Below are positions 4,686-48,371 of a stretch of DNA of 64,000 bases, one piece after another. Made by a program: the position numbers and the translations under genes. Position 1 is the stretch's first letter. The number at the start of each line of letters is the position of its first letter. Below the pieces are notes generated by a model. The model did no database searches and was not told where the DNA came from. It saw only the letters and a program-made list of their open reading frames with translations. Origin of the DNA: Lophium mytilinum (lineage: Eukaryota); the NCBI GenBank assembly GCA_010093605.1, contig MU004197.1:1302001-1366000 (forward strand), in the 5' to 3' direction.

Positions 4686-6955
4686 ATGCTGTGCGACAAA
4701 TGTATCAACATCCACTTCAAGCGGATCGAGGAGTGTGACTTGATTCGAGAAGAGCCTGATCGGCTGCTAGGGACGGACTCTGTCAACATATTCCATTGTG
4801 TGTTCTACTTCCATCACAGAAACAGACATGACCTGGAGAAATCTGCCGATCGAGGCTGCCACTTCTGTGGTATGCTTTGGGGTAGACTACTTGGAGGGGA
4901 TGGCAATGGTCTGGTGTCCAACTACCGCTTTGCTCGCGGCGAGGTGATACTGCGCCGTTCTATTGTAGAGAAGTGGATTGATGATAAGTCTGGCACTGGG
5001 CTACATGGTTGGAATATAGGTGACTGGATCTATATTCAATGCGAGGAACAAAACTTCACAACGACGAATTCCGAAACGTATTCAGGTATGTGGCAGATTG
5101 GGCCTCTGTGTGGTCGCTTCTTAACTTATTACTCACTATTCTAGGTCCTGTAGCTGTAATGCTCGAGGCTCTAACGTCTTGCAGAGACATAGAGTCCTTT
5201 GGTCCATCGACGGGGGTTGCTCCGACCCTCTTGGACGACCATGAACTTCAAAATATCAGTTCAGAGCTTATCCCCTCGCAAGACTCAAGCATTTATTCAC
5301 CCTGGCTTGACTTATCAACCGCGTCACCTGCTAGTATGGCACTCGCATCTGTTTGGCTCCGGAACTGCCTCGAAAACCACTTACCTTGCAGTAATGCTCA
5401 AGGCGAGGGTACATTACCGCGACGCATTATCGATATCAGCTCTCCCCAGCATCCCTTTCTTGATGACGGAAATAGTAGAAAGGGCTCGTATCTGACATTG
5501 AGCTATAAATGGGGGGAGAGTCACCGATACGTGACAACGACGGAGACCGAGGGTAAACACCGAAAAGAAGTACCGCTGAAGGAGCTTCCTTGGACATTTA
5601 AGGAGGCCATACACGTGGCTGATAGTCTTGGGTTCCGTTGGATCTGGATAGATGCGCTTTGCATTCTCCAAGACTCCAAGGAAGACCAGCGCCGAGAGAT
5701 AGGGCTCATGGATCAAATATTCCGTTGGTCTACCCTAACTTTATATGCGGCTGCTGGTAACAACGCAGATGCTGGAATATCAGTAAATCGAGATCCACGA
5801 TGCGTCAAACCTTGTTGCCTGCCTCTGAAAACGACACTCGACGGCAAGACGGCCTCGGGTAAAAGCTACACTATGCTCGATAGTGGTAGAGCAGATACAC
5901 CATTGTTCGACCGCGGATGGGTTTTACAAGAAGAAGTCCTCGCACCTCGAGGGCTTATATTCGGAGAGCGTGAACTAGAGTGGCGCTGTCTATGCGGAAA
6001 CTCTTCTGAAAGTCGTCCGATCTACAAGCACCGCGTGGAAAGATGGCAAGATCTAGGGAATGAACAGTACAAAAAGTGGCGGTCATACTCCTCAGGAAAG
6101 GACGGATTTGACACGCTTCGTATGTGGCTCCATGAGAAAGACCCAGTTCCGGACCGGACACCATGGCAGCGAGATAATCAATTTGATCTCTGGTACACCT
6201 TAGTGAAAGAGTATAGCCAGCGATCTCTTACATACCCTTCGGATGTCCTTCCAGCCCTTTCCGGCCTCGCGAATGCCCTGGCAAAGACGCACGGCTGCAC
6301 CTACGTGGCAGGTCTATGGAAAGAGGACCTACAAATTGGTTTGATCTGGTACGTATCAGGTCGGCGTTACTATTATCAGCCTCCATTAAAGGACCATCCC
6401 GATGATGGGAACATGACTCTTCCATCCTGGTCTTGGGCTTCACAGTGGGGAAAGGCCATCAGCTTCCGAAATTGGCAGAACAATAATACCCAGGTTGTAC
6501 CGGACGGTATGCAATTGTACAGCGGCTTTCCATACATCCGACCACTTCGAGAAGGAAGCGTTAATGCAACGAAAAGTCTGATTGTGACTGCTCGTGTCAG
6601 AACGGCAGTGGTCTACCAGACGACAAACATCGAGTATAATGATCGAGAGGACGCATGCTGGATCGCAGGCATCAAGGATCCAGTCTCCGGAGACGAGATT
6701 GGCCAGATAGCATTGGACTCTGACCCTTCCCAAGTGCCAGTACGACTAGTTTACTGTCTTCTTTGCACTGTCCGAGAGAAGTACGGCGAGTGGCACCTCA
6801 CTGGCGTTGGACTCGTCCCTACGGACGAGTCGTTTGAAGAGTTTACGAGAGTTGGCCTGGCTTTTGTGCGCAAAAAGGGATGGTTTGGCCATTTAGATAT
6901 GGGGTTTGAAAGGTCTAGGGATAGTAGGTATCTGAGAACAGTGCGAATGGTCTAA
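4686..6955 (+). CDS. HET (heterokaryon incompatibility) domain protein; exons 4686-5085 and 5145-6955
   Basis: HET motifs YLTLSYKWG, WIWIDALCILQD, RGWVLQE and DVLPALSGLA; N-terminal MLCDKC...GCHFC; GTATGT...TAG intron joins the two ORFs in frame. Confidence 0.93.
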
Positions 6956-29221: not shown

Positions 29222-30626
29222 TCAGGTATCCGGAAGAAAGCTATAACCTTCTTTAGAACTGCCAGGGCTCTGGTCCATTCCGTGGCTAGTGTGGAATGTT
29301 TCGAAGAAGGGATTATATTGAGAATTGAAACCATTACTCAACATTTGATTTTGAAAAACAAAAGGACTGGGAAAATTTCTTCTAGGGTAGCTAGAAGAAA
29401 AAGGGACTTCCATGGTTCCGTGGACACGCAAACCTTCCGTTCCATAGCTTGGATCATGCGTAATCGGTGAAGGTTGAGAATCCCAAGTACCATCCGGATG
29501 AGCGGGCAACAAAAAGGCAGCTTCTGGAAAAATGCCTGTATGAAATTCCTCATGGAACGAAGTGACGGGTGCCTGTACGTACATCTGTCCATTCGTTTCT
29601 GCGCCCAAGCTCGCATCATTTTTCAATGGCGTTTCAATGAGACCTTGCTCAGCCATATCTTCAGTTGCAGTAACGCGAACGCCCTGATGCATATCCGCGG
29701 GTGATGTATTTGGTGTTTGTGCAAGGCGTAACGGTTGCGAGTTTGACTGAGGATGATCGTCAATCTGGCCAGAGGCGGGAGATTTGAATTCAGGACCAGG
29801 TGTAGCTAATGGGTTTATTCTAATTGCCAGATGTCAGTAATATAAAGGTAAATATACTCCTCCGGTAAAGATACCTCTTCGTCTTCCTCTTATTTCGCCC
29901 TCCCGGTTTCACTGGCTGTGGTGTATCGTCATCAGTCTTATGCTGATGTGTACACTGCGAATAGTGTTAGCAAAGATGAATACATGTTTGAGGGTAGGGA
30001 ATTACTTTGCGTTTGTGCATCTTGCACGACTCGCATGCTCCATTTAGCCTCCGGCGTTTGTATTCTCCGCGTTCCCGCTCGTTCATTTGTCGCCGTCTTT
30101 TGCGTGTCGGAGCGCTACCATCGGACGTACGCCAAATCGAGACCATTTCCTCCATGGCGGGAACAAATTTATTAGAAGAGATGAGGCTGATGCTCGTCGG
30201 TACGTGTTTGGTAACCCTCCTATCGGCTGTTGGGTTTGGCATTGGCGGTGACGAGTCAGACTCTGGAGAGGTGACCGGCGAAGAATGGTCATCCGAGCTG
30301 GAAGCTGACGTGCTTCGATGTTCGACACCCGTCCTCCCTGTGAGCGTGGGAGTCTGGATGTTTAGCTTGTCGGCATAGTCACCAGCAGTGGCAGGACCCT
30401 CCGCGCCACCCTCCAGCTCAGTGGACAAAAAGTCTATTATAGCCCGAATTTTGCGCTGCGCATGGTTCTTTAGATTCGGGTAAGCTGTCCGCAGCTCATC
30501 GAAGAGCTCATCGGAGTCGGCAGATGGAGAAAATACGAGACCGGCGGAAGGATTGTTTGGGTCAACGCCAAATCTTCCATCGCGGTAAACCCGGTAATTG
30601 ACAGGCGATAAGTTGAGCCCAGCCAT
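29222..30626 (-). CDS. Putative transcription factor with a truncated Zn-cluster-like motif; 3 exons
   Basis: KRRRLNGACESCKMHKRK|CTH across an intron; the second intron splices in frame into ORF 29222-29692; N-terminal DELFDELRTAYP domain. Confidence 0.65.
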
Positions 30627-32096
30627 CTTCCAAGAGTTTACCTAGGTGGCAGAAAAACAGCTGATACGCAAGAGTCACAGCATACCTCCCCTCAAACACT
30701 CGAATCACTTGGGCGGTGTAAGCTAACGAAGGCTGACGTTACGGAAGGCAAACTCACGTGGAATAGCTGCCAATGATAGATTGCAAAGGTCCAACAATAG
30801 GACATAAGTTTGTGGAAGCGATCGGTTGTATAAGATGCGATATGAAGTTTATTCGAAAGATGCAACACCGCACACAGGAAAAGTCTCGCCACGTGACCAC
30901 GATTGCTTTAGACCACCGCTTCACGACACCAATGATAATCCTAAAGTCTCCGAAACGACAAACCAAATCCAAAATACTCGTGAAGCCCAGAAGTCTACGA
31001 CACAAAGCTAAGAGAAGAAAAGAGGGGTGAGGTAGGGGGAGTAGTGATTACCAACTCGACGCACTCAACACGGTGAGGGTGCGAACCAGGCCGCAAGGCA
31101 ACAAGGCGGACTCGCATATTCGTAAGTAATTGCCCCAATTGGACACCGATAAGACGCTCCATGCACGAATCCTTCCCCAAGAGCGCTGACAGTGCCCCAT
31201 GACTTTCTGCAACTCATCCGACTGGATTTGCAGCTGCGAGCGTTGTTGCTCAGGCTCTCACCGTGCAGCTCGATTCATGCAGGCGTGCCCAAGTGTGCAA
31301 GGAGCCAACTCGTATTGAGGCACCGCAAAGCACTAGACGCTCCTGTATTTGAGCTTTTGCCCGATGAGGTAAAACGGTGAGAGGCTGACGGCACAGATAG
31401 TTGTTGATGTCGGAAAAGGTTTCTTCGTTCAACCACCGCGATACGCCGAATGGAGACCGCGCGCGGCAAGGTCGCAAAGGATCCTGCAGCTTTTCTCTTA
31501 AGGGGAATATCTGCTTCCGGGGCGTAATTGGACATGGATTGGAGGCCACAAAACTAAATGTGGTTGTTGTAGTAATGAACGACATTGGTTTGGGTTGGGC
31601 TTCCAAAATCGGAGCCCGATCCTTGGAAGATGTCCCGTCACGTGAGGACCACGTTCGATATCTTCATATACCCCCTAAGTCATACAAATCTACTAGCAAT
31701 GCTCTCCTTAAGAGTAACATGAAATCAGCTACATATGGCGGATTTCTGTTTGTTTCCTGTGTTCTGATCGACACGTGACCCTTTAGCTCACTGCTTTTGC
31801 TCACCCAACCTCATCCTGTCATTATCCTCAATTGCAGCGATCCCTAGGTGACTGAGAAGCAGTCGCTACTTAATACGTCTGGACATGCGCTCTGTGCGCA
31901 ATAGACCGAGACCGTCGGCGAGAGGATCAAAACCTGTTCTGAGTTTCACCGACATGAGCATCATCAATCTTAGCTCTCGAGGATGTCCTAACGTATCTTT
32001 CACGACTTCTCTTGAGCTAGAATTGGGAGGACACATCCCCGAGATGGACTTTTCCCGCAAGTCAGGGTTCTTTTTCCACTACAAGGCAACCAACTT

Positions 32097-34074
32097 TCAT
32101 TGCCGCGTTGTATATTCGTAATCCTTTTGTAGTGGCACCACAACCCCTTGATAAAACCGTTCTCTGAAATGGTCGTCTGTAAGGCTATACGAAGAGCTGT
32201 CGAAGTTGCAGTGGATACATCTGTGGACTGCGTCAAAGTAATTAGCGAGCTCGCGGTCGCGAAGTGCGTCCGCAAGGCGGCCGGCGACAGAGAACTCGGT
32301 CCAAACGGTGCGCTTCCCATCATCATCCCAGTCCTCAGTAGTTTCAAACGCGGAAGTAGGCTTGCCATAGGAGATCTCCAGTAAAGCTACACCAAGGGCG
32401 AAGATGATACTGTTCTTCACGAAACAAAGTCTCTTACGGTGCGGAGGCGTGGAGTCTGGTGTAGGTTTGAAACTCTTCGACACGTATGGCTGATCGGAAA
32501 GCAGTGCATTATTGGAGTTTTCGACAACATATATATCCTTCATGGTCCATGTTTCGCTTAGCCAAGGCGTTCCGTGGAGCTGGAGGACAGCGGTAGCCAG
32601 TGTGAGCGCAATTCTGCACCTGCTGAGATATTAGTGGGTGATCGACAGCCGAACTTACTATGCTTACTTCTCTTTAATCTGAAATCCATTTCGGGATTGG
32701 CCATGAAGTACTTCTTCGAGCGACACAGTCTTGCCTGCCGTTCTACTTGGTATTGGTAACGTGATTGAGTGGATGTGATGTTTTGTCGCAGCATCGCTTA
32801 GAATCCCCAGACAACACATGCCTTGCGCGTGGCCTTTCAAAGCCTTGCAGAGGTCATCAATCTTAGGTGCCGTTAGTGCGCATTTCTGCCAAAGTGTGTG
32901 TCGCTGTGGAGCCGGTGGCAAGACAAATGTGGGAGTTTTCGAAGCTCGTGGTGCTGTCCTGCTAGTGATGCATTAGCGATCTTGTAAATCCTTATATATA
33001 ACTCTTAGAAGAAGGTCGCTAGTTATTTCACGCACGGAACTTTGGTACCGTCTCATAGACCAAGGTCGTTTAGAGTTGGTGCCCAGAGGAAATGGGCAAG
33101 GCTTACGGATGATGATACTCGTCTCCTTCTGGCTCTATTTCTACAGCGCGCCAATGCCATGGGAGGGCTGTAGGACGTGCAGATACTTCAAATGAGAATA
33201 AGAATCTAAATGTGCTCCATTGTTCGATTCCGCGTTCTTTTCGCAGGTCGAGCCGCAGATTGGCCTGATGAAGATGCTGGCAAGCGCATTGAGGAGACCA
33301 TCGGGTAAAGAAGCTGTTATACAATGCCTCGGCCTGCGTACGCAGGCTGTTCCAGTACTTAGAGTTTGCTTTGCGTTTTCGTTCGAATCGAAGAGGTTCG
33401 AGGGCAATCGCGCCTGCTGTTAGGATAGATATCCGGCTGATATTGGTATCAATTTCGGACAGCAACAGCTTGTACTTGTCCGCACTGAATCCACCTCTTA
33501 CTCGCGTCAATGGATTTTTGAAGAAGTCTTCGCGGGCTCTCACATCGACGATGTTGTTCTGGTCAATCCATTGTGGCTAAGAGGCTTTAGTCCAGAGCGT
33601 CACTGGTAGCACAATGAATGCACTAACCTTGAAGTTTTGCTTTAACCTCAGCTTCTGGCCAAAAAGGACGACTCTTTTATTGAGCTGTTTTACTGAAGTT
33701 CTGAACGGCAAGTAGTTGGAGCCGAGCCGTTCTCGAAGTCGTTCGCTGAGACCAACATCCTCCCAGGCACTGCCATCAATCTTTTCGAGTAATTCATAGA
33801 GCTGAGAGTCCGGCAGAGCAAGGGGACCGAGCAACTCTTCGCAAGAGTTCCGGTATATCGATAGGCTAGTAATAAGAGACACATGAAGGTCATCAAACAC
33901 CCCTTCGTACTTTTTCATGCTCTTTATTGTCGCGACCTATGTCTCCGTCAGCCTTGCACCCCAAGATCAGCATTACTGAGAAGCAGTGATTACCCCATCG
34001 GCATAATGTTCTAGAGCACTAATTATTAGCGGAATCGACCCCAGCACAGCTCCTGCAATCTCGAAGCCAGACAT
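32097..34074 (-). CDS. HeLo-like N-terminal domain plus DUF7580-type (kinase-like) C-terminal domain protein, multi-exon
   Basis: N-terminus MSGFEIAGAVLGSIPLIISALEHYADG; LATAVLQLHGTPWL, IFALGVALLEISYG, YFDAVHRCI and FYQGVVVPL; GT-AG introns link ORFs 33577-33918, 33103-33543, 32664-32921 and 32097-32543. Confidence 0.82.
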
Positions 34075-34320
34075 GTTGGGCGCTAACAGTGTGAATAGAG
34101 AAGAAGGTAAGTTGGTAGGAGAAAAAGCATGGGGTCAGTATTCTATGGCCCGTGCGTGCGGGGCCTGGGGGCCATTTCACTGCCCTGCTGCACGCACCCT
34201 TCAAGTCTAACCTTGGGAACTGCATCTTCATCACATCGACATCGTGGTCACGTCAGATATACACCAACGCAGGGGAGAATATGGGTAAAGGTGTCTCCTG
34301 AGTCTTTTCTTTTAGCCGCC

Positions 34321-37300
34321 ATGGAAGGGTCCATCGCTGAATCGCACACTGTATGCCTTGATTTATTCGCAGCCTTGCTGAGCGTCATCAAACAGCATTC
34401 TACAAGTCATGCACTACTCGAGACTGATATTCAAGATGAATTCGACAAGTATAGTATGTGGGCGGGAAATGTCGGTGCTGCCTTCTCCGGACAGAACTAC
34501 AAGCGTTCCTTAGATTATCGGCTTAGAGAAGCTTCCTTTTACAAGGAGCAGGTATGTGAATTATCTCAAATCTCAAATCTTTTCGTTTCGGCCATCTTAG
34601 CTCATATCAACTTCTTTACTCTTCATCCTTGCTGCACTTCAACTCGGTTAGGGCCGCCAATATTCGTGACTGGATTACTCGAGGTACCGCCGATAGTATT
34701 CAGCCTTGGCGAGTAGAGGCCAGACGTTCCAGGCTCTGGATAGAGACTAACGATCAAACCTTGGACTTAGGTATTGAAGCTCTTGGAGAGTCTGCGTGGA
34801 GTGGTGAGTAATCGTCTGCATACACATGCAAACCTTCATGAAATGACCGTCGCTGAATCAAAGAACGAACTAGATTCACAAAGGTATTTGTCCCTGGCGG
34901 CCGTTTCCACGATTAGTGTACATATTGCTGACACACAAGCACAGCGGTGTCTATTCTCAACGGCAACAAAGTACCATTTGATGAATTATCGGAGTCTGAA
35001 TCAGACACGCTTGCCGATGACCAAAGTGGGGAGGACTCTCCTTGGGAGATATCCTCCAGCTCGGAGGAAGAGGACATGGACGTCGTAAAAGAACATCCGC
35101 CAGCGCCAAAAATTTCTCGTTCGAGCGTCATCAAGCTAGAACAGACCGTCGCTCCCTCCTCGCTGCCCGGAACACAAACAGAATTACGCCAATTGATGCA
35201 ATCAGTCAGCTTTACCGTTACATGTCTTTGGCGGATTCCTATTCGTAGACCTGCTCCGATCGATCGAATCAAGGATAAAAGTGCAGCCGAGACGTCGTAT
35301 TATCAACCGTTCGATATCTTGTACGTGAAGGATAAATTACCATTCGTTGATGAGAGCGTCGCAAATCGTCTTGGCAAGTTGATATCGAAACGACGTCAGA
35401 TAATGCAATACCGCAAGGGCCATACCGATGCATTGCAATCTATTACCATTGAGCCTAGGCACACGGCAGAGCGACGCGTTGCCGAGTTAGGTGGTACGAC
35501 TAGTGTAGGAGATTTAACGGCGCCTTCAAAGAGCGCGCCAAGTCGTCAGACACAAGAGGAAAAGGCCACGACTTTGAGACTGCCTCGAAACGAAATGGAG
35601 CTCCAAGATGTATCTCGACTTTATGCACCTTCGATGCCCGAGTCAAGGACCACGGCGGCTTCCGACCAGGCCGCAAATACGGAGCGAGTCATTATTCCGC
35701 CACGGCCTGTTGGGAAGAACGGCAAGCCTCTCGAGCAGTTCGTATGTCCTTATTGTTCCGTGACTCAGATCATCAAGTCCGAACGGAGTTGGAAGTAAGT
35801 TGAAGCGACCAGCATAGAGTTAGGTATCAATTAACTGTTTCAGAAAACACGTCTTGGAAGATTTGCAGCCCTACGCCTGCACTTACCCAGCATGTGAGCT
35901 ACAGGAGTACTTATTCGAAAACAGAGAGGAGTGGAACAATCACGAGACACAGCATCACCGACTCGAGTGGAGCTGCAATACCCAAGATCACCAATGCTTC
36001 GTAGAACTTCCTAGCTTCCTGGAGCATATGGCAGGAATCCATGACAGTTCTTTGAACGAACGCCAGATTCAAGCTTCGCGAGGTATGTTCCAGCGCCCGG
36101 TTCAAAGCCATTCGGGTGTGTGCACGCTTTGTCACAAGCAAGCGACTAAACTGAAGATTCACGTGTCTCGTCATTTGGAACAAATGTCTCTATTTGCTAT
36201 ACCACCCGCAGACATGATGAAAGACCTCGACTCGGACATTTCCGGGTCTGGTCTTTCACATCGAAACATCAATGGTTCCAAATCTAAGAAAGCCTTGTCC
36301 AGAGGATCAGGAAGCCTCTCGCGCATTTCCGATGATGTAGTCTCTCATGATGACGCTGGCACACTTGCGCATCCGCCAAATGGACATTGGGAACATGTCC
36401 AATGGACCCATAGATCTTTTGAGGAATGCCGGGCACTCGGACTAAAACCTCAGTGGGAGAAACTGATGCAAGCAACATTTCCGAAAGAAGTTGGGATGCT
36501 TGTGGTCGAGAAAGTGTTTCCAGCGAGGCCTATGGAGATCGATCTTACAGCGGGCGACATGCTAATCACGGTCAACAAAACACTAGTCGCAACCATCGAC
36601 CGCCTAAATCAGATCTTAGATGATAACGTCGACGGAAAATTTCCCGCGTTGGTTCAAAGGGGTCGCGAGGACGTTAACCTTGATGGTCGGGGACTTGAAA
36701 TCGTTACCAAGTCGGCAGACGACCTAGACATTAAGCAGACGTCCGTTCCTGATATGGACGTGGACGAGAGCACTTTGGACAACTCTTGGGACCATATCAC
36801 TCCAAAATTCCGAGAAGCACGTGCTGCGATGTATCCCGAACTACTCGCACAGCCACCTGTTTCGGCTGAGCAAGCTCTTGAAGGGGTAACAGGCCCTAGA
36901 TTGATGCTGCCCCAGATTCTCACCTACTCACCACGGCAAGGCCAAGCTGGGGACAACTTCTCCCTTGAATTAGGAAGTCAAGTCGACATTCTTGGAAATG
37001 TATTGCCGTCTGCTCCGTACGGTAAGAGATTAGACACCATAATACTGCAAACCTCTCCCTCCGCCAACAATGCGCCGTCGCCAAACGAGCGACCGCGACT
37101 TAGGACTGGCTTCAACGGCCAACTGCTAGCTAAGGCCCAAGCATTTGCCTCATCCATGTCGCCTTCAGATGGTCAAGCCGCGACATCCCCTCCAGGCCAG
37201 TCACCGGGGGATCAAGCTCTCCAGGACTACCGGGAGCAGCTCAAGCTCCTAGACCAGGAGAACAAGAAGCGCCTTGTGATAGCTCGCCAAGAGCAAGACA

Positions 37301-40213
37301 GCATAGCCCAACCCCCTTCTGGCCAACCGTTGGCTAATGCCCAAGAATTCGGCTCATCTATGTTGCCTTCAGATAGTCAAGCCGGAATATCACCCAATCC
37401 GAACGACCTGATGAGCAGTCCGCCCGGTCTCTCTGAGTCTCCCATGGCTGACGTCATGCAGGACAGCCGTCGCCCTCGGAGAGCAGCAGCTCCGACGTTT
37501 GGCGCGGAGAGTGAGGGCTCCTCGGTTTCCCCGGTTTCCCACCCAATCCGGAAATCAGGTATAACAGCTCCTGTGTATGGCTCGGAGAGTGAGCAGGACT
37601 GGACCTCCCCTGGCTACAATTCAGAGATAAGGTACACTATAATCTTCGGAAGGGAAGCAATACTACCTGTCGTAGTTCCCCTGTCCGAGGTTCAAGACCA
37701 CTCTCTGCCATTCTCATTCTCACTGCACACCGAAGTGCCTAGTGGAGAGATGAATGAGTGGAGCTATGACCTAAGTGGAACAAAAAAGAGTAGTTCAGTG
37801 CACGTGCAACTACGACTTGAGCGAAACATGTCTGACGGATCTACTTTGCTTGAGCATGTTGATGTCGGTGACTTCGAGTATGTGGAGACAGTAAAGAGTT
37901 CGGAGGCGCAAGCAGACGAAGACCCCAAAATCAAGCCAAAACTAGATATCACGCCTTCAGATCGAGACCACTACCAGCAGAGACCAGTTTGTGGAGCCTC
38001 GATTGGTGCATATCGAGACGGCCTACATCTTCCACCAGCTACATTCGGCGGCATTGTTCTCGTTGATGGCAAGCATTATGGCTTAAGCGTCCATCATATG
38101 CTTGAAGTACCTTCGGACGATGAAGAAAGTGATGATGGCGAGCCTGATGATTCAGGTGGCGATCCTGTTCGCGATCCGTCGGCTCACAAAGGAGAGCATG
38201 CACCAGTGAGGAGTACTGCGCGCAAAGCAAAAGGGAAGTCCGTAGTGGTCTCGGCTGGTCTTGACCTTATACATGGCAAATTATATGAAGTGGACGCTAC
38301 CTGGACTAAGATCGACCGCCGTCTCGTCAATGCAGAAGCTCTTGAAGAGGCACAGGAGCCGTTTGAGGAGCGCGAAGACTCGTTAGACTCTTTATATGTG
38401 TTAAGAGTATTAACAAAGAAGGAAATACAGAAGCTGGCTGATCGAACCAAGCGAATAAGGGATAAGAGATCTCGCGACGAGCATAACATTGCAGAGTTAT
38501 CGAAAAACCCACCCTCGGGAGAACCTGAAGACAACTCAAACGCCCGTGAACAACGCCCCGCGAGTGAACCACGTATAACTCACGATCACCCCGGCTCTTC
38601 TGGTGCATATGGCCGTGACGACTATAATAGCTATTCGGACGACGACATGGAAGTCAGATCATCATTCGAGGGTGGCGAGTTTCGCGAAATCATTGGTACC
38701 GTTGGTGACGTTGAGGGTATTCGACCGGGTAAGGGGGAACAGATCATCATCACACAACCCGCAATTGATGATGTTGCGGAAGACCTTTTTCCAAGCTTAG
38801 ATGACAGAGACGAAGATCACTTGCACTCCCACGCCCTTGGCCATGTCTATGCATCATCGGGAATTCGTCGGTTGCGCCGCAGAGGGATCCTCCATGAGAT
38901 AGATTGGGCTCTGATCAAGATCGTCGATGAGCGTTTGGCTCCATGGAACGTGGTTCACGGCGGTGGACAGTTTTGCATCGACGCTGCAACCGCTGCCAGA
39001 CAGGACTCGCCGCGCGTCAAGCGGGAACCCGATTGGCATGACTACTATAAGAACGGCCTCCCAAAAGAAGTCATTGTTATTGACGATGACGACGACGAAA
39101 CTTCACCTAGCCAGCACGACCAACCCGAAATGAACCGACACGCCATCGCGAAGGCCGTTGAAGACATTCCCGGAAAACTTCCGCAGCCTCTAATCGCCCA
39201 CTTACTCACCATAGATCAAGTAGAACGGGCCTTGGAATGGTGAGTAAACGTTCTTTTCGGCAATACTCTGCTAATGCTCTCAATAGGTTACGTACTTGCT
39301 TTGAACCAGACTCATCATGCAAAGTTAGTTTGATAGCGCTAGAGAACGCGTATATGACGACTTTCGAGTTCGATTTAATAAAACACTGGTGGATGGAGAT
39401 TGACACAATGAAACACTGGTTCAGGGGGCTCCCAAACGAGGAATTTTACGGCGTGTTCCCGACAGCCTCCATCACGACATATCCAGAAGCAGAGGCAAAG
39501 AAGAATTCGATCCACGGCATTCGGCCACGCAAAGATGATTACCCAGTTGAAGTTGCCAGAGCAGACGAACTTGCAGATCGGAAAGTCCATTGGTATGGCC
39601 GAACCTCAGGCTTGCAAAGCGGAGTAATTTCATCTACTATGCGTCAAGTGCGGTTCTACGGCCGTGAAACGTTCGCTGCTCTCTGGAGTGTCAGTGGCGG
39701 AGGTACGTGTGTCTTCGTCCAGTGGTCTTTCTTAGCAACACAGCAATTTTCGGGCAGTCCTTCTGCCCTTAACGTGCTAACTTGGAAATAGCAAAAGGAG
39801 GCGACACAGGTGCTTGGGTCATCGATGACCGTAGTCGTGTTTGTGGCTACCTAATTGCCACCAGTGAGGCCAAGCAGGTTGCTTACATGTGCCCGATGGA
39901 GGTGGTCATGGAAGACATCAAGCAGACGCTCGGTGCAGAATCAGTGTGTCTGCCCGGGTCGGCTGAGGCCAAAGAGAGGCTCGAACGGAAGTTTCCGGCC
40001 CAAGTACCTCGTCCTCTGTTCCCACTTGGAGCCAAGGTGCAACTCAGAATAACCAACAACCACCTGATGAACGCCTGTATCACTGACCGCAGGTGGAGTC
40101 CAGGGCTTCCGTGGGAGTACCAAGTGAGGCCAACCAGAGATGATGTCAACCAAGACAATGTTGAGGAGCATGGGGAATGGTTTGATCAGAGTCGGATTGT
40201 GAAGAGAAAGTAA
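34321..40213 (+). CDS. Large mosaic protein (roughly 1800 aa): N-terminal helical domain, C2H2 fingers, several foreign fragments, trypsin-like domain and C-terminal SH3/Tudor-like domain
   Basis: MWAGNVGA...SLDYRLRE; FVCPYC...WK|KHVLEDLQPYACTYPAC; GASIG...VHHML...DWALI...GRTSG...GDTGAW; introns from 34552, near 35796-35843, 39240-39286 and 39703-39791 join the ORFs; the micro-exons near 34.77-34.95 kb are uncertain. Confidence 0.82.
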
Positions 40214-45123: not shown

Positions 45124-45917
45124 CGCCTAGATTCTTCCAAGTTACCATGTCGAGGATATTTCTCGAAGATAAACCCAGCGATTGTTTGCATTGGGAAGTT
45201 TGCAGATGAGATCATTAACCCACATAGACCGACCGTAGCTTGAGTCTGCAGTAGTACGACAGACTTTAGCAGGAGACTAGACTAATTAAAATGATTTGTT
45301 GGATGAATTGAAACACATGACCTGCGAAGACGCTTTCAAAGCATAATACAGCAATCACGATGACGGATGAGGACGGAAGCTCAAGTGTATGTGTATTGCT
45401 AGTACTACATGTAGGTCTATCAGGTGCAATTGTAGCTGTTCAATGCGAGCTTGCATAATTTATGCGAAAAGTACAACTTTCCTAGGTAATCGACATTTTC
45501 CCAGTTCCCGTTTGCCCACTCTCTCAGACAGGGTAGACAGCGGCGCTCGTCGCGGACGTCTCTCGCATTATTCCACGTGTTCAAGACACGCTTCAACAGT
45601 GAATCGTTTGACAAGGTGGAGCACCCCACAAGAGTTGCAGTGACGCCGTCAGAAGTGTTGACGCCGCGCTCTGATAGCGACAAGCAGATTTCAGTTCCGA
45701 TACAGGAACATAGTGATTTTCAAGCTCCGGTGTACGGTGAATCATTCAGCAAGGGAAAACCCAGGTCCTGCAACAGCCATTCACTGCAACCTAAAACACT
45801 GCATCCCCGAAGACGCCTCTATTTAAGCCTAGGAGTCCAGCTCTTAAACAACAACACACTGTCGACCCCTCACCAACACCCACATCATAGCCACACCACA
45901 CTCACTACCACTCTATC

Positions 45918-48371
45918 ATGCCACATCTTCGGGAGCCGAAGTCACAATTAAGGCTTGTCCCGAGGGCACTGCCGGGAGTGCGCCATCCTTTGGGCGGAGA
46001 GCCTCAGATGGTGGCAATTTCTCACCTCACGTACACGGAAATCATTGTAGCGTTGAAGGATGTTCTTATACTAGCGCCTCTAGGGAAGCTGTTCAAGCCG
46101 TCGACAATGTCTGGTTCTAAATTCCACGCTATCCGGAACTCATCGACCTGGGCGATGTACGAACTCAACCAGATTTCGGAAGAGGAATGTTACGCCATGC
46201 TCTGCGACCAACAATTCCCAGAACTGACCCCGGAGGCTATTCAAATAGCGGTCACCGAGTCGCTCAAGGATGTTCGCATCAACTACTCCCTCCTCGACGC
46301 GTTGCAGAATATCAAGGCCCAGTCGGAGGGGGAGAATATCCAGAATGGGAGGACTGGTAGGCTACGTGTTATCGGGGTGGCCAATATCTCTCTACCAGAG
46401 TGGACTGCCCTACGCTCGCGTCGGCATTGGAAGATCTTCTGGGATCTCTTCGACACGGTACTTACATCTTGGATGGTGGGTGCGCGGATGCCGGATCTAG
46501 CATTCTTTGAGCATGTGGAGACAGCCCTGCATCTGGACCCATCAACGGCTATATTCATAGCGCTAGAGTCGGAGCTTGTTCTAGCAGCGCGGGCCGGAGG
46601 GATGAAGGGCCTACACTTTGAGCACACAAAAGAGACAGTTAGACAGCTTCTGAACACGTTCGGTGAGCCGGTCCAACGGGGCAACGACTTTCTGATGCAC
46701 AACGCGAAGAAGATGATATCGGTAACTGAGGCGGGGGTTACCGCGTATGATAACTTCTCACAGCTTCTCATTGCCGACCTGACGGGTCGGGAAGATCTGA
46801 GTATGCTTACAGTCCGGGAATTATGCCGATCATTCCCTGAAGTCTGGGCTTTCCTCCAGCCTGGCACAGAATATCCCCTCGAGAGGCTGCCGGGGGATGT
46901 TGGTACTACAGTGCTTGCATTTCTGACGCTAAAGTTGACCGATGGAATTACGGAAGATGTCATGGAAGCCATCCTCTCCGACCTTACAGTGGACGGTCTT
47001 GCTGGAGCTCACATCCACTGCCCAGATTTCTACGGCAGTCATCCCTCCATCGCTGATCCAGTCACTTGCGTCAACGTCCTCCGTCTCTTCTACCGCCATG
47101 GCCGCGGATCTGAAGTCCACAAGACATTTGAGTATGTAATGTCTGTATTCTGGAACCGAGCCTACGTCGAGGGCACACCGCTTTTCCCGCACCCCGAAAT
47201 GTTCCTTTACTTCCTCACCCGCTTCATCGTTGAGAGCCCCGACAAGTACGAGCTCTACCGCCTGATTCCGAATATGGAGAAGCGACTCCAGGAGTTCATC
47301 GGATGGCCTAAGGATGCGCTAGGACTCGCGTTAAAGGCATTGTCTCTCGAGATGCTCAAGATCGACAGCCGCATCTATACCGCCGCTATCAAAAAGAAGC
47401 AATGCGAAGACGGCGGATGGGACGCAGATATATTCTGTACCTACGGTACGGACCGGGTCAGACTCGGTAACCGTGGTGTTGCAACCGCTTTTGCTGTCAA
47501 GGCACTCGGTGGGTGCATGCCACGAGAGCCCGAAAAGACACAGTTCCTCCAAATCGACAACCTGAATGATAGGAAGTTGCTAGAAGAGCTCGAAGAGGAA
47601 ATACGAGGTTTCGAGGTCATGGAGGAGAGTATCGCAGAGTTCGCCGTTTCCGGAGATATTCGTCTAGCGGTCCTCGTAAACGAGAACGCCTACGAATCCG
47701 GCCTACAATTGGAAAATGACATCCGAGCCTTCGTTTACCCATACCACGCAGCCTATTATCACTTCGTATGGGGTCAGGTTGCGCGCTTGCGAAAGGTGTT
47801 CTGGCATATGATCGCACAGCTAAAGCATCTATTTGACTTGGCAATGCTCACTTTCTTCGACGCTGTCGATGCTGGAAACCAAGCTATCCGGTATGTCGCG
47901 CTCCACGATTGGATGATCTTTCTCGTCTTGGGCCCCGTTGTCTCCGTTTGCCTACTGGGAGAGAATCTCGATATCACGTACGCATTCGGTACCGTCTTAG
48001 CCGCTGCGCTCTACGCCGACCTTATGGTGGCGCTTTGCCTCTACAGGCCCGATGGACTTTTTGCAGGGGCGGGGCACGGCCCGATAGCGCGCTGTGTTGG
48101 ACAGGCATTCGACAAAGAGACGTATACGGTGCCCTTCCTGGCAATCTGTGGTTCGCTAGCGCGAGTTAGCGACCGTACGCGTGGCTACTTCTTCGCGAAG
48201 GTTCAGAACGTAGGCGAGGGCATCAAGAGCGTTGGGGAAAAGGTGGTGGCACTGACGCCTCCACGTGTGTATAATGCTTTGGAGGAAGATGAGGAAGGAG
48301 AGGATCGCATGGTGCGGAATCTTGAGCAGGAGTTTCTCGCTGTGAAGGAGCGAGAGGGTAGTAACAATTGA
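45918..48371 (+). CDS. HAD-like plus class II terpene cyclase protein (drimenol synthase/AstC-type) with degenerate motifs and a hydrophobic C-terminal extension
   Basis: DNFSQLLI, PGDVGTT (DxDTT position), DPVTCVNVLRLFY, RAYVEGT, QCEDGGW (QW motif), GNRGVATAFAV; N-terminal HAD-like region. Confidence 0.78.
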   Translation: MPHLREPKSQLRLVPRALPGVRHPLGGEPQMVAISHLTYTEIIVALKDVLILAPLGKLFKPSTMSGSKFHAIRNSSTWAMYELNQISEEECYAMLCDQQFPELTPEAIQIAVTESLKDVRINYSLLDALQNIKAQSEGENIQNGRTGRLRVIGVANISLPEWTALRSRRHWKIFWDLFDTVLTSWMVGARMPDLAFFEHVETALHLDPSTAIFIALESELVLAARAGGMKGLHFEHTKETVRQLLNTFGEPVQRGNDFLMHNAKKMISVTEAGVTAYDNFSQLLIADLTGREDLSMLTVRELCRSFPEVWAFLQPGTEYPLERLPGDVGTTVLAFLTLKLTDGITEDVMEAILSDLTVDGLAGAHIHCPDFYGSHPSIADPVTCVNVLRLFYRHGRGSEVHKTFEYVMSVFWNRAYVEGTPLFPHPEMFLYFLTRFIVESPDKYELYRLIPNMEKRLQEFIGWPKDALGLALKALSLEMLKIDSRIYTAAIKKKQCEDGGWDADIFCTYGTDRVRLGNRGVATAFAVKALGGCMPREPEKTQFLQIDNLNDRKLLEELEEEIRGFEVMEESIAEFAVSGDIRLAVLVNENAYESGLQLENDIRAFVYPYHAAYYHFVWGQVARLRKVFWHMIAQLKHLFDLAMLTFFDAVDAGNQAIRYVALHDWMIFLVLGPVVSVCLLGENLDITYAFGTVLAAALYADLMVALCLYRPDGLFAGAGHGPIARCVGQAFDKETYTVPFLAICGSLARVSDRTRGYFFAKVQNVGEGIKSVGEKVVALTPPRVYNALEEDEEGEDRMVRNLEQEFLAVKEREGSNN

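Follow-up and report, generated by a model that had tools for sequence, protein, structure and literature searches.

HELL–pseudokinase architectures, two-gene death clusters, the SltB, SltA and PskA proteins of Aspergillus nidulans, and the integrated decoys proposed for fungal NLRs (nucleotide-binding, leucine-rich repeat proteins) are all known already, and all bear on the subject of this paper: a pair of head-to-head genes in a 64,000-nucleotide stretch of the genome of Lophium mytilinum, one of the Dothideomycetes (GenBank assembly GCA_010093605.1, contig MU004197.1, positions 1,302,001 to 1,366,000, forward strand). We call this whole stretch ‘the window’, and number positions from its first letter. 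The closest described system is Slt (cation/alkalinity). By published accounts, SltB is a protein of 1272 amino acids (aa) with a pseudokinase at approximately residues 350–550 and a chymotrypsin-like protease whose similarity to the Ssy5 (S64) family is low; residues of note in SltB are H1033, D1036, G1140, S1142, F1126 and G1156. Self-cleavage splits the pseudokinase from the protease half, the halves remain associated afterwards, and the C2H2 factor SltA is cleaved only when both are there; the S1142A allele is null. PskA (AN7985) is the closest pseudokinase paralog of SltB. By the same accounts it has no Slt phenotype and no known function, its pseudokinase spans residues ~301–523, it is found only in the Pezizomycotina, and it is transcribed divergently from a partner gene, ffkA (AN7986), which encodes an unclassified kinase with ankyrin repeats.

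The two Lophium genes diverge from start codons at 34074 (left, minus strand) and 34321 (right, plus strand), with 246 bp between them (Table 1); these coordinates, first given in a preliminary description made from the sequence alone, were checked and stand. The left protein joins a helical N-terminus to a DUF7580 pseudokinase. The right protein joins an N-terminal helical domain (the ‘N-module’) and C2H2 zinc fingers to a long C-terminal region that holds, in Lophium, a protease-like domain and several inserts. The likeness to SltB/SltA is considerable: the protease domains are of the same family, the pseudokinases of the same superfamily, a C2H2 protein is involved in both, and both are restricted to the Pezizomycotina. 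Unlike SltB, which is one chain, the pseudokinase and protease-like domain here lie on two divergent genes, and the protease-like domain follows an AcuF-type C2H2 module in the same protein and has threonine in place of its nucleophile serine. PskA resembles the left protein in the placement of its pseudokinase (residues 319–550 in the latter), in its Pezizomycotina-only distribution and in its divergent transcription, and differs in the partner it faces. FfkA is not known to carry the C2H2 module. Because the pairing is conserved, the two genes are transcribed jointly, and the domain types of both are fused in SltB, a functional pair is likely, and we think that the left and right proteins probably work together. 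The fuller proposal—a conserved, co-expressed functional pair in which one member regulates and the other delivers the output—we would put at slightly under an even chance.

Evidence for joint transcription comes from the contigs of run X1, whose status as RNA is a guess from the tool only. These contigs derive, we conclude, from spliced transcripts, because nine GT..AG / CT..AC joints fall at predicted introns. They span both genes and all 10 introns, one of the nine joints crossing both of the introns that flank a 10-nt micro-exon (34874–34883). Through this micro-exon, they connect the WAGNVGA/SLDYRL exon (34321–34551) in frame to P0030, the public model of the right gene, and since they add three upstream exons in frame, P0030 (start 35076) lacks the first 135 residues of the protein. 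The complete right coding sequence comprises 1785 codons with no internal stops, and is identical to P0030 from residue 136 on. The open frame of its largest exon (35824–39240, 1139 codons) is covered by transcript and has 0 stops, where the two alternative frames have 48 and 75. The left gene model matches a public protein, P0001 (558 aa, Lophium mytilinum), with 99% identity in the last exon; database proteins of this species match the window at 99–100%. The transcript-free gap between the genes is at most ~122 bp (34095–34216), contig ends being derived from record sizes.

The pairing is conserved. When metagenome contigs were scanned with the left protein family, nine loci were found, of which five had enough upstream DNA, three did not, and one (L008) held a partial paralog. 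In all five of the first kind (L001, L002, L003, L005 and L006) a gene with the N-module and C2H2 fingers lies on the other strand, ~326–367 bp separating the two ATGs; L001 and L002 are near-identical. The pair in Ophiobolus disseminans is numbered adjacently (458775 and 458774) on one contig, and in Alternaria rosae both are listed on contigs of equal size. Conserved head-to-head linkage was one of the things by which the preliminary description proposed to judge the pair, and in these sequences it is what is found. The partial DUF7580 paralog in L008 (10001–11190) is 50% identical over residues 384–554.

What the left gene is paired with varies, as the preliminary description had anticipated. 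In the five metagenome loci the partner is ~700–800 aa long, judged from the ends of its open reading frame (ORF), and is without the protease-like domain. In Ophiobolus it is 1105 aa and has the domain, and in Lophium it is 1785 aa and has both domain and inserts. Since the metagenome partners lack the protease blocks, the conserved core is the pseudokinase protein and the N-module, the protease-like domain and inserts being later additions. Among the sequences compared, the inserts are peculiar to Lophium, and the pairing is older than they are and independent of them.

Two genes this close might also be unrelated neighbors, kept together merely by a very short common promoter. Bidirectional promoters can hold unrelated genes, and an alignment of the intergenic DNA with that of related loci showed no motif clearly common with Lophium. 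Nonetheless, we regard coincidence as very improbable, for the pairing persists from the Mytilinidiales to Pleosporales-like sequences at just 45–56% protein identity, SltB-family proteins unite domains of the left and the right gene in a single chain, and predicted complexes of the two proteins, described below, beat their controls, if weakly.

The left protein begins with MSGFEIAGAVLGSIPLII, and residues 207–552 of P0001 match Pfam DUF7580 (PF24476) with an E of 4.7e-35 (122.2 bits; cut-off 27), and the last exon by itself still reaches an E of 3.7e-24. The C-terminal kinase-like domain reported earlier is thus confirmed. Residues 319–550 align with the kinase-like domain of SltB-family proteins 1100–1600 aa in length (hhalign probability 80%, E 1.3e-5), and in this alignment the catalytic-loop H-K-D of one of them, P0036, is replaced by S-E-T; on that account, we class the left protein as a pseudokinase. 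By its layout and the published description of PskA, the left gene would be PskA-like. The N-terminal hydrophobic helix, too, is as first described: mean Kyte–Doolittle hydropathy over residues 4–22 is 1.6–2.0 in eight of nine orthologs, and the first 24 residues form the helix. The ninth ortholog, P0004 from Alternaria alternata, has an N-terminus unlike the other eight and no hydrophobic helix, probably the result of a wrong start in its gene model. A literature search found no paper that mentions DUF7580 or PF24476. PNP_UDP_1, a domain often found at the N-terminus of fungal NLRs, occurs joined to DUF7580 in P0026–P0028 (two of them Penicillium-named) and, in the Logan protein P0105, to the AcuF-C2H2 module; these fusions make a second, indirect domain link between the left and right gene families.

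Binding between the partners was modeled with residues 1–445 of the Ophiobolus right protein, P0032, and the full Ophiobolus left protein, P0021. The three runs scored 0.58, 0.01 and 0.59, the best of three controls scored 0.17, at least 26% of contacts agreed, and the partner’s predicted local distance difference test score (pLDDT) was at least 72, a result that the tool grades as ‘weak support’. In calibration, 51 of 78 solved complexes reached its mark, as did 2 of 108 mismatched pairs; passes at or below 0.60, the range in which ours fall, comprise 5 of the 78 solved complexes and all 4 passing mismatches (of 180). Complex prediction, which had been proposed as a check, thus leans weakly toward binding. 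If binding occurs, the pair might operate as follows. The short common promoter would lead to joint expression of both genes. The left pseudokinase protein would bind the partner’s N-module, and the partner’s lineage-variable C-terminus would serve as the input, or regulatory, part—in Lophium, a SltB-derived, probably inactive protease domain joined by the captured pieces (PDZ, Q-rich, PF26118 and Rsc9-like). A change at this input would set free the helical domain at the N-terminus of the left protein, which would then act, in all likelihood on a membrane. Followed through to its membrane-directed end, the whole chain seems to us doubtful.

Several results weigh against the proposal of a regulator and its output. 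The survey of linkage covered Pleosporomycetidae-like sequences only, and within them L008 has no N-module gene within 10 kb upstream of its partial paralog. The protease-like domain, being absent from the five metagenome partners, is excluded as the conserved site of contact. Of the three complex runs, one scored 0.01, and by the tool’s counts a score that passes at or below 0.60 is, without a good prior, more often wrong than right. BLASTP with short words on three partner pairs found no motif in common (best E 0.44), so a relay of the NWD2/HET-S amyloid type is not indicated. The structural model of the left protein is poor (a nine-row alignment, mean pLDDT 43), and Foldseek returned no match for it at E ≤ 1e-3; its top rows are kinase domains, non-significant and from this poor model. 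HeLo-like N-termini are membrane-targeting cell-death domains in fungi, as in HET-S, and the preliminary description had placed the left N-terminus among them. Sequence tests did not bear this out: P0001 has no HeLo (PF14479), HeLo-like or SesA match in Pfam at E ≤ 1, and residues 1–210 show no similarity to the HeLo region of SltB-family proteins (hhalign probability 0.15%). A lead, rather than a finding, comes from a language-model (Atlas) feature search with residues 1–205, in which a HeLo cluster ranked second (score 0.94, 179 features in common) and 8 of 30 matches were HeLo; a HeLo-like N-terminus would rest on this search. Helices are predicted in the left model at 3–28, 32–66, 88–122 and 163–183, with pLDDT of only 45–72. 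The closest characterized relatives, finally, are not proteins of cell death: SltB is a stress-signalling protease, and deletion of pskA is reported to be without phenotype in the conditions tested. Stress signalling by SltB, a PskA without known role and the failed HeLo sequence tests point away from cell death; the presence of the N-module in NLRs, its variability in copy number and the hydrophobic helix with which the left protein opens point toward the world of NLRs and cell death.

The first ~500 residues of the right protein comprise the helical domain, a conserved helical stretch of RRPAP type, and then the C2H2 fingers (zf-C2H2_AcuF). Among 33 aligned members, four are truncated N-terminally and all 29 with a complete N-terminus keep the WAGNVGA/SLDYRL domain. 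This alignment, the X1 contigs and a precomputed PF26082 annotation bear out the domain and fingers of the preliminary description. PF26082 on P0030 and P0032 rests on the precomputed Pfam column; the local Pfam scan gave no PF26082 for any protein, and returned no family for the whole of P0030 or for nine other exon pieces, the local library apparently being without PF26082 and PF26118. The model of P0032, the Ophiobolus right ortholog, is confident at residues 10–105 (pLDDT 80–96) and over the fingers (91–96). In VIA comparisons, its helical domain matches the SD of the plant NLR Sw-5b (Z 10.3) and the CC of Rx (Z 9.0), both below the bar for helical bundles. The right N-terminus was also tried as a HeLo domain, and is not detectably one: an hhalign probability of 99.8% proved circular, the same SltB-family rows being in the alignment (A2), and a clean repeat gave 0.4%. 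PDB sequences searched with profile A2, and with the left profile A1, yielded nothing of meaning.

A search with the Ophiobolus N-module found 125 relatives at E ≤ 1e-3. By our own count in the precomputed Pfam column, NACHT, NB-ARC or related domains occur in 23 of the 120 proteins listed, accompanied by TPR, ankyrin or WD40 repeats, and one combines HET and NACHT. Elsewhere, what follows the N-module may be a protein kinase, macro, HSF, homeodomain or PNP_UDP domain, among others. A literature search found PF26082 in one paper. In the Neurospora crassa pangenome, PF26082 is reported to rank beside HET among the families that vary most in copy number.

Beyond the fingers, the right protein was first read as a patchwork of fragments. 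Three of the pieces prove to belong together. Collinear blocks at P0030 residues 949–1010, 1191–1300 and 1452–1575 are common to 47 SltB-family proteins, at 48–82% identity and with E-values down to 1e-36, and carry the motifs G-x-T/S-V-H-H, H-E-I-D-W-A-L and G-D-S-G-A-W. Their fold was assigned on the model of P0032, which is confident over the blocks, rather than on the Lophium protein itself. Foldseek gave 62 matches to this model at E ≤ 1e-3, and the top rows listed are all of the PA clan (L5 and alpha-lytic proteases, NAL1, Deg/HtrA). By VIA, the highest Z-scores are 14.9, 14.4 and 13.5 over model residues 621–1010, the first against L5 protease with a root-mean-square deviation of 3.1 Å over 183 aligned residues; NAL1 and Deg/HtrA also matched. 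The His, Asp and Ser blocks thus form one chymotrypsin-fold domain with long loops, which explains most of the ‘patchwork’; what remains of it are the foreign fragments before and between the blocks.

The nucleophile of this domain is not constant. Among four full-length members it is threonine in Lophium (codon ACA, 39806–39808) and Ophiobolus, alanine in Melanomma and serine in Massariosphaeria, and the glycine at S+14, a site of mutation in SltB, is missing in Lophium, Ophiobolus and Melanomma. With serine replaced by threonine, we class the Lophium domain as protease-like and not as an active serine protease; from its residues, it is probably inactive. We identified the family as that of SltB by architecture, size and residue landmarks, the published SltB being compared by its description. 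Two Aspergillus members of our set show the corresponding residues (H-E-I-D, with Gly at position S-2, Phe at S-16 and Gly at S+14), and have Asp-to-Ser distances of 101–102 versus 106 in SltB. Pfam finds HeLo in 25 of 25 aligned SltB-family proteins (1100–1600 aa), DUF7580 in 22 and Pkinase in 15. If these are SltB, then SltB would itself have a HeLo domain, a pseudokinase and a protease, a layout like that of MLKL. With all three joined there in one chain, the Lophium pair would re-sort known parts. The best HeLo match among P0035–P0081 has an E of 1.2e-9, and that of P0036, at 30.9 bits, exceeds its cut-off of 23.2. A literature search found no paper that relevantly joins SltB and HeLo. Mellado et al. 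(2015) report that genes resembling SltB’s C-terminal part alone were not found in any genome analyzed. The right gene and its relatives, in which the SltB protease domain appears to stand without its pseudokinase, are such genes.

These relationships invite a non-lethal reading, in which the pair is a paralog of the Slt pathway: the right protein a latent C2H2 regulator with an SltB-type protease, the left a scaffold or prodomain acting in trans, and the output a zinc-finger fragment, released by cleavage to regulate genes. Several points favor this. SltB, as published, unites a pseudokinase and a protease, needs both to cleave SltA, and parts them by self-cleavage; the right blocks have the close identity to SltB-family proteins given above; the left pseudokinase aligns with that of SltB and has the layout of PskA; and the N-module is joined elsewhere to DNA-binding domains (HSF, homeodomain). 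The catalytic residues fit it poorly. Serine is kept only in Massariosphaeria, the S+14 glycine has gone as well from the three others, and the serine-to-alanine change in SltB is, as published, null. Moreover, all five metagenome partners do without the domain, PskA is described as lying outside the Slt pathway, and the right fingers are of AcuF type. Loss of the nucleophile argues against simple Slt-like cleavage in Lophium, and would fit a role in binding or as bait, or decay. We consider an Slt-like pathway unlikely on balance.

Compared with Ophiobolus and Melanomma, the Lophium right protein is longer by several stretches, which precede the His block and occupy both of the loops between blocks. 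Searched against 1.84 billion representative proteins, the first extra stretch gave 468 matches at E ≤ 1e-3, limited to two sub-segments. One is the PDZ insert, which matches residues 299–393 of Salinomyces Nma111, the first PDZ domain of that ‘pro-apoptotic’ HtrA-like protease, and which is absent from P0032 and P0083. The second sub-segment is the Q-rich insert. Pfam PDZ_6 on this insert is weak (E 0.13), and the only other match on the insert pieces is SUKH_5 at E 0.06. Because hhalign of the SltB family with Nma111 shows no similarity, the PDZ insert is not a remnant of an HtrA-like ancestor of the protease domain. The PF26118-type segment occurs also in other PF26082 proteins (43–45% identity to P0082, P0150 and P0175); a literature search on PF26118 and DUF8035 found nothing. 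Pfam returned nothing for the Rsc9-like insert. Two stretches of insert (query 117–270 and 400–536 of the first extra stretch) are without relatives detectable by protein search and Pfam. All of the inserts are in frame, are present in transcript contigs, and have a coding-type base composition. In the P0032 model, pLDDT falls below 50 at residues 498–611 and 666–812, long, unconserved loops that correspond to the places where the Lophium inserts lie. A metagenome relative, P0031, has a SUZ domain (E 1.9e-6) between the fingers and the His block, where Lophium has the PDZ and other pieces; different lineages may put different pieces at this site, or the gene model of P0031 may be in error.

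The preliminary description suggested that the pieces may be captured from host regulators and act as baits. For the PDZ and Q-rich pieces, the resemblance to host proteins holds up (Table 1); for the Rsc9-like piece it is weak. It also likened the pair to those of plants, RPS4/RRS1 and RGA4/RGA5, which are head-to-head executor and integrated-decoy sensor NLRs. The head-to-head arrangement, conserved as we have seen, and the presence in one partner of extra domains resembling host proteins are indeed shared with these pairs. By Pfam, neither Lophium gene has a nucleotide-binding domain, nor do the proteins have leucine-rich repeats, and the role of decoy is here putative. On such a reading, the pair would be a non-NLR immune module, the left protein an executor and the right a sensor, in which the captured SltB protease, Nma111 PDZ, Rsc9 and Q-rich pieces stand in as integrated decoys for the targets of effectors or toxins. 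Linkage that is conserved beside a partner C-terminus that varies is what such a module should display. The fragments, homologous to host proteins, are at most 47% identical to them yet still in frame, with no stops in 1139 codons where the other frames have dozens, and with coding-type composition; a protease-like domain without its nucleophile is as a decoy might be; the N-module occurs in NLR proteins; and integrated decoys have already been proposed for fungal NLRs. Against this, the inserts are found in one species only, being absent from Ophiobolus and Melanomma, and they sit in low-confidence loops of a kind that tolerates insertions. Neither partner has a nucleotide-binding domain, and the executor role of the left protein is itself putative, its HeLo sequence tests having been negative. 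Integrated decoys seem to us distinctly unlikely.

The same loops suggest a plainer origin: an SltB protease domain fused once to an N-module gene and then decayed, while its disordered loops gained in-frame insertions that do nothing. In a quick tree, eight of ten C2H2-linked protease-like domains form one clade (SH-aLRT 99) amid Dothideomycete SltB-family rows. The Lophium and Melanomma rows fall outside it, on long branches of 0.35 and 1.78 versus a median of 0.1. When all ten are kept in one group, the tree gains 8.7 log-likelihood units (p-AU 0.75), the group of ten having been defined after the first tree was seen; a single fusion event is therefore not rejected. Decay after such a fusion accords with these long branches, with a nucleophile that is S, T, T or A among four full-length members, and with the two stretches that have no detectable relatives. 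Less easily accommodated are the intact frame of 1785 codons with inserts in transcript contigs, His and Asp blocks that are still highly conserved, and a PDZ piece which, at 47% identity or less to Nma111, must be old and yet is still recognizable as a PDZ relative at E 1e-22. That the inserts are tolerated baggage is quite possible, if short of probable. It concerns the inserts alone, and could hold alongside any other explanation.

Other comparisons turn on the left protein. MLKL, and the fungal proteins in which HeLo or HELL is joined to a pseudokinase, resemble it in having a helical domain with a hydrophobic first helix, and then a kinase-like domain from which the catalytic residues are missing. 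The N-terminal half of SltB is laid out similarly. Some HELL domains, a 2025 review notes, occur in kinase and pseudokinase proteins. Unlike these, the left N-terminus fails the Pfam and profile tests for HeLo, and no activating kinase is known. The nwd2/het-S and het-Q1/het-Q2 (gasdermin and protease) clusters, as described, also place a putative membrane-acting protein next to a multidomain regulator that bears a protease-family domain. Here, in distinction, the regulator is without an NLR domain, the partners share no amyloid-like motif, there is no gasdermin, and the right protease domain is of the PA clan, without its serine, and not S8 or CHAT. If one were to join the likeness to MLKL with that to decoys, the left protein would be a killer, restrained by its C2H2-module partner and released when an effector attacks decoys taken from the cell’s own stress and death machinery, and SltB, with its HeLo match, would be the all-in-one ancestor. 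We consider this a long shot.

Our literature search did not find the divergent pairing of DUF7580/PskA-like and AcuF-C2H2 genes, most subscription journals and bioRxiv supplements lying outside the search, so that absence from print is not shown. The same search did not find a serine-less SltB protease domain in the AcuF-C2H2 family, or the HeLo match of SltB-family N-termini. Should the pairing prove functional, the DUF7580/PskA pseudokinases, without function since 2015, would gain a partner, and the large AcuF-C2H2 N-module family, which is copy-variable and forms the front of many fungal NLRs, would gain its first mechanistic lead. The protease domain of SltB would appear to be mobile, having moved into another gene family and there lost its nucleophile, and the HeLo match of the SltB family may link stress proteolysis with necroptosis-like death. 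The Lophium gene, for its part, could serve as a test case for fungal integrated decoys outside of NLRs.

Table 1. Features of the divergent gene pair, in window coordinates
Feature	Position	Strand	Remarks
Left gene	32097–34074	-	Putatively PskA-like DUF7580 pseudokinase; splice-signal model, spliced joints and Pfam
Left gene exons (n = 5)	34074–33994, 33936–33628, 33576–33107, 32958–32668, 32619–32097	-	
Left exon 1	33994–34074	-	Encodes N-terminal hydrophobic helix MSGFEIAGAVLGSIPLIISALEHY
Inter-ATG region	34075–34320	.	Common to both genes; 246 bp
Right gene	34321–40213	+	7 exons, 1785 aa; transcript contigs; tail = P0030
Right gene exons	34321–34551, 34771–34803, 34874–34883 (micro-exon), 34945–35794, 35844–39239, 39287–39702, 39792–40213	+	
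N-terminal helical domain	34321–34803	+	WAGNVGA and SLDYRLREASFYK motifs; exons 1–2
AcuF-type C2H2 zinc fingers (PF26082)	35745–36240	+	Crosses intron 35795–35843; precomputed annotation
Nma111 (HtrA-like protease)-type PDZ insert	36400–36684	+	47% identity, E 1e-22
Q-rich DYREQLKLLDQENKKRL insert	37180–37323	+	Common to many fungal proteins, including a LisH-domain protein; 62% over 48 aa
His block, SltB-type chymotrypsin-fold domain	37969–38154	+	GLSVHHML
PF26118-type insert	38269–38616	+	Between His and Asp blocks; precomputed PF26118 on P0030
Asp block of protease-like domain	38695–39024	+	HEIDWALIKI
Weakly Rsc9-like insert	39175–39536	+	Asp–Ser loop; crosses intron 39240–39286; PDB 23cp_R, E 0.034, 14.6 bits
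Ser block	39525–39985	+	Crosses intron 39703–39791; GDTGAWV at 39800–39820

A few minor features of the gene models may be recorded. The last intron of the left gene ends in a tandem CAGCAG acceptor at 32619–32622. The X1 contig uses the downstream AG, for a protein of 557 aa; the public model uses the AG 3 nt upstream (exon from 32622), for one of 558 aa. Two X1 contigs end at 37461 and 37514 with loose ends that continue into unlike sequence, which could reflect a short repeat common with another transcript, or a break in the assembly. The two right-gene contigs, overlapping by just ~19 nt, have mean depths of 32 and 219. The left-gene contig extends ~2.2 kb past the stop codon (approximately 29738–32096), across minus-strand ORFs at 29970–30641 and 31253–31663; overlapping transcripts, read-through or a long 3′ untranslated region could account for this. 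Elsewhere in the window, the long open frames at 457–2718 (754 codons) and 45891–48368 (826 codons), both on the plus strand, have no Pfam family at E ≤ 1e-4. At 5024–6952, also on the plus strand and 27 kb from the pair, a 643-codon ORF carries a HET domain (E 3.3e-28), and is another gene of incompatibility type.

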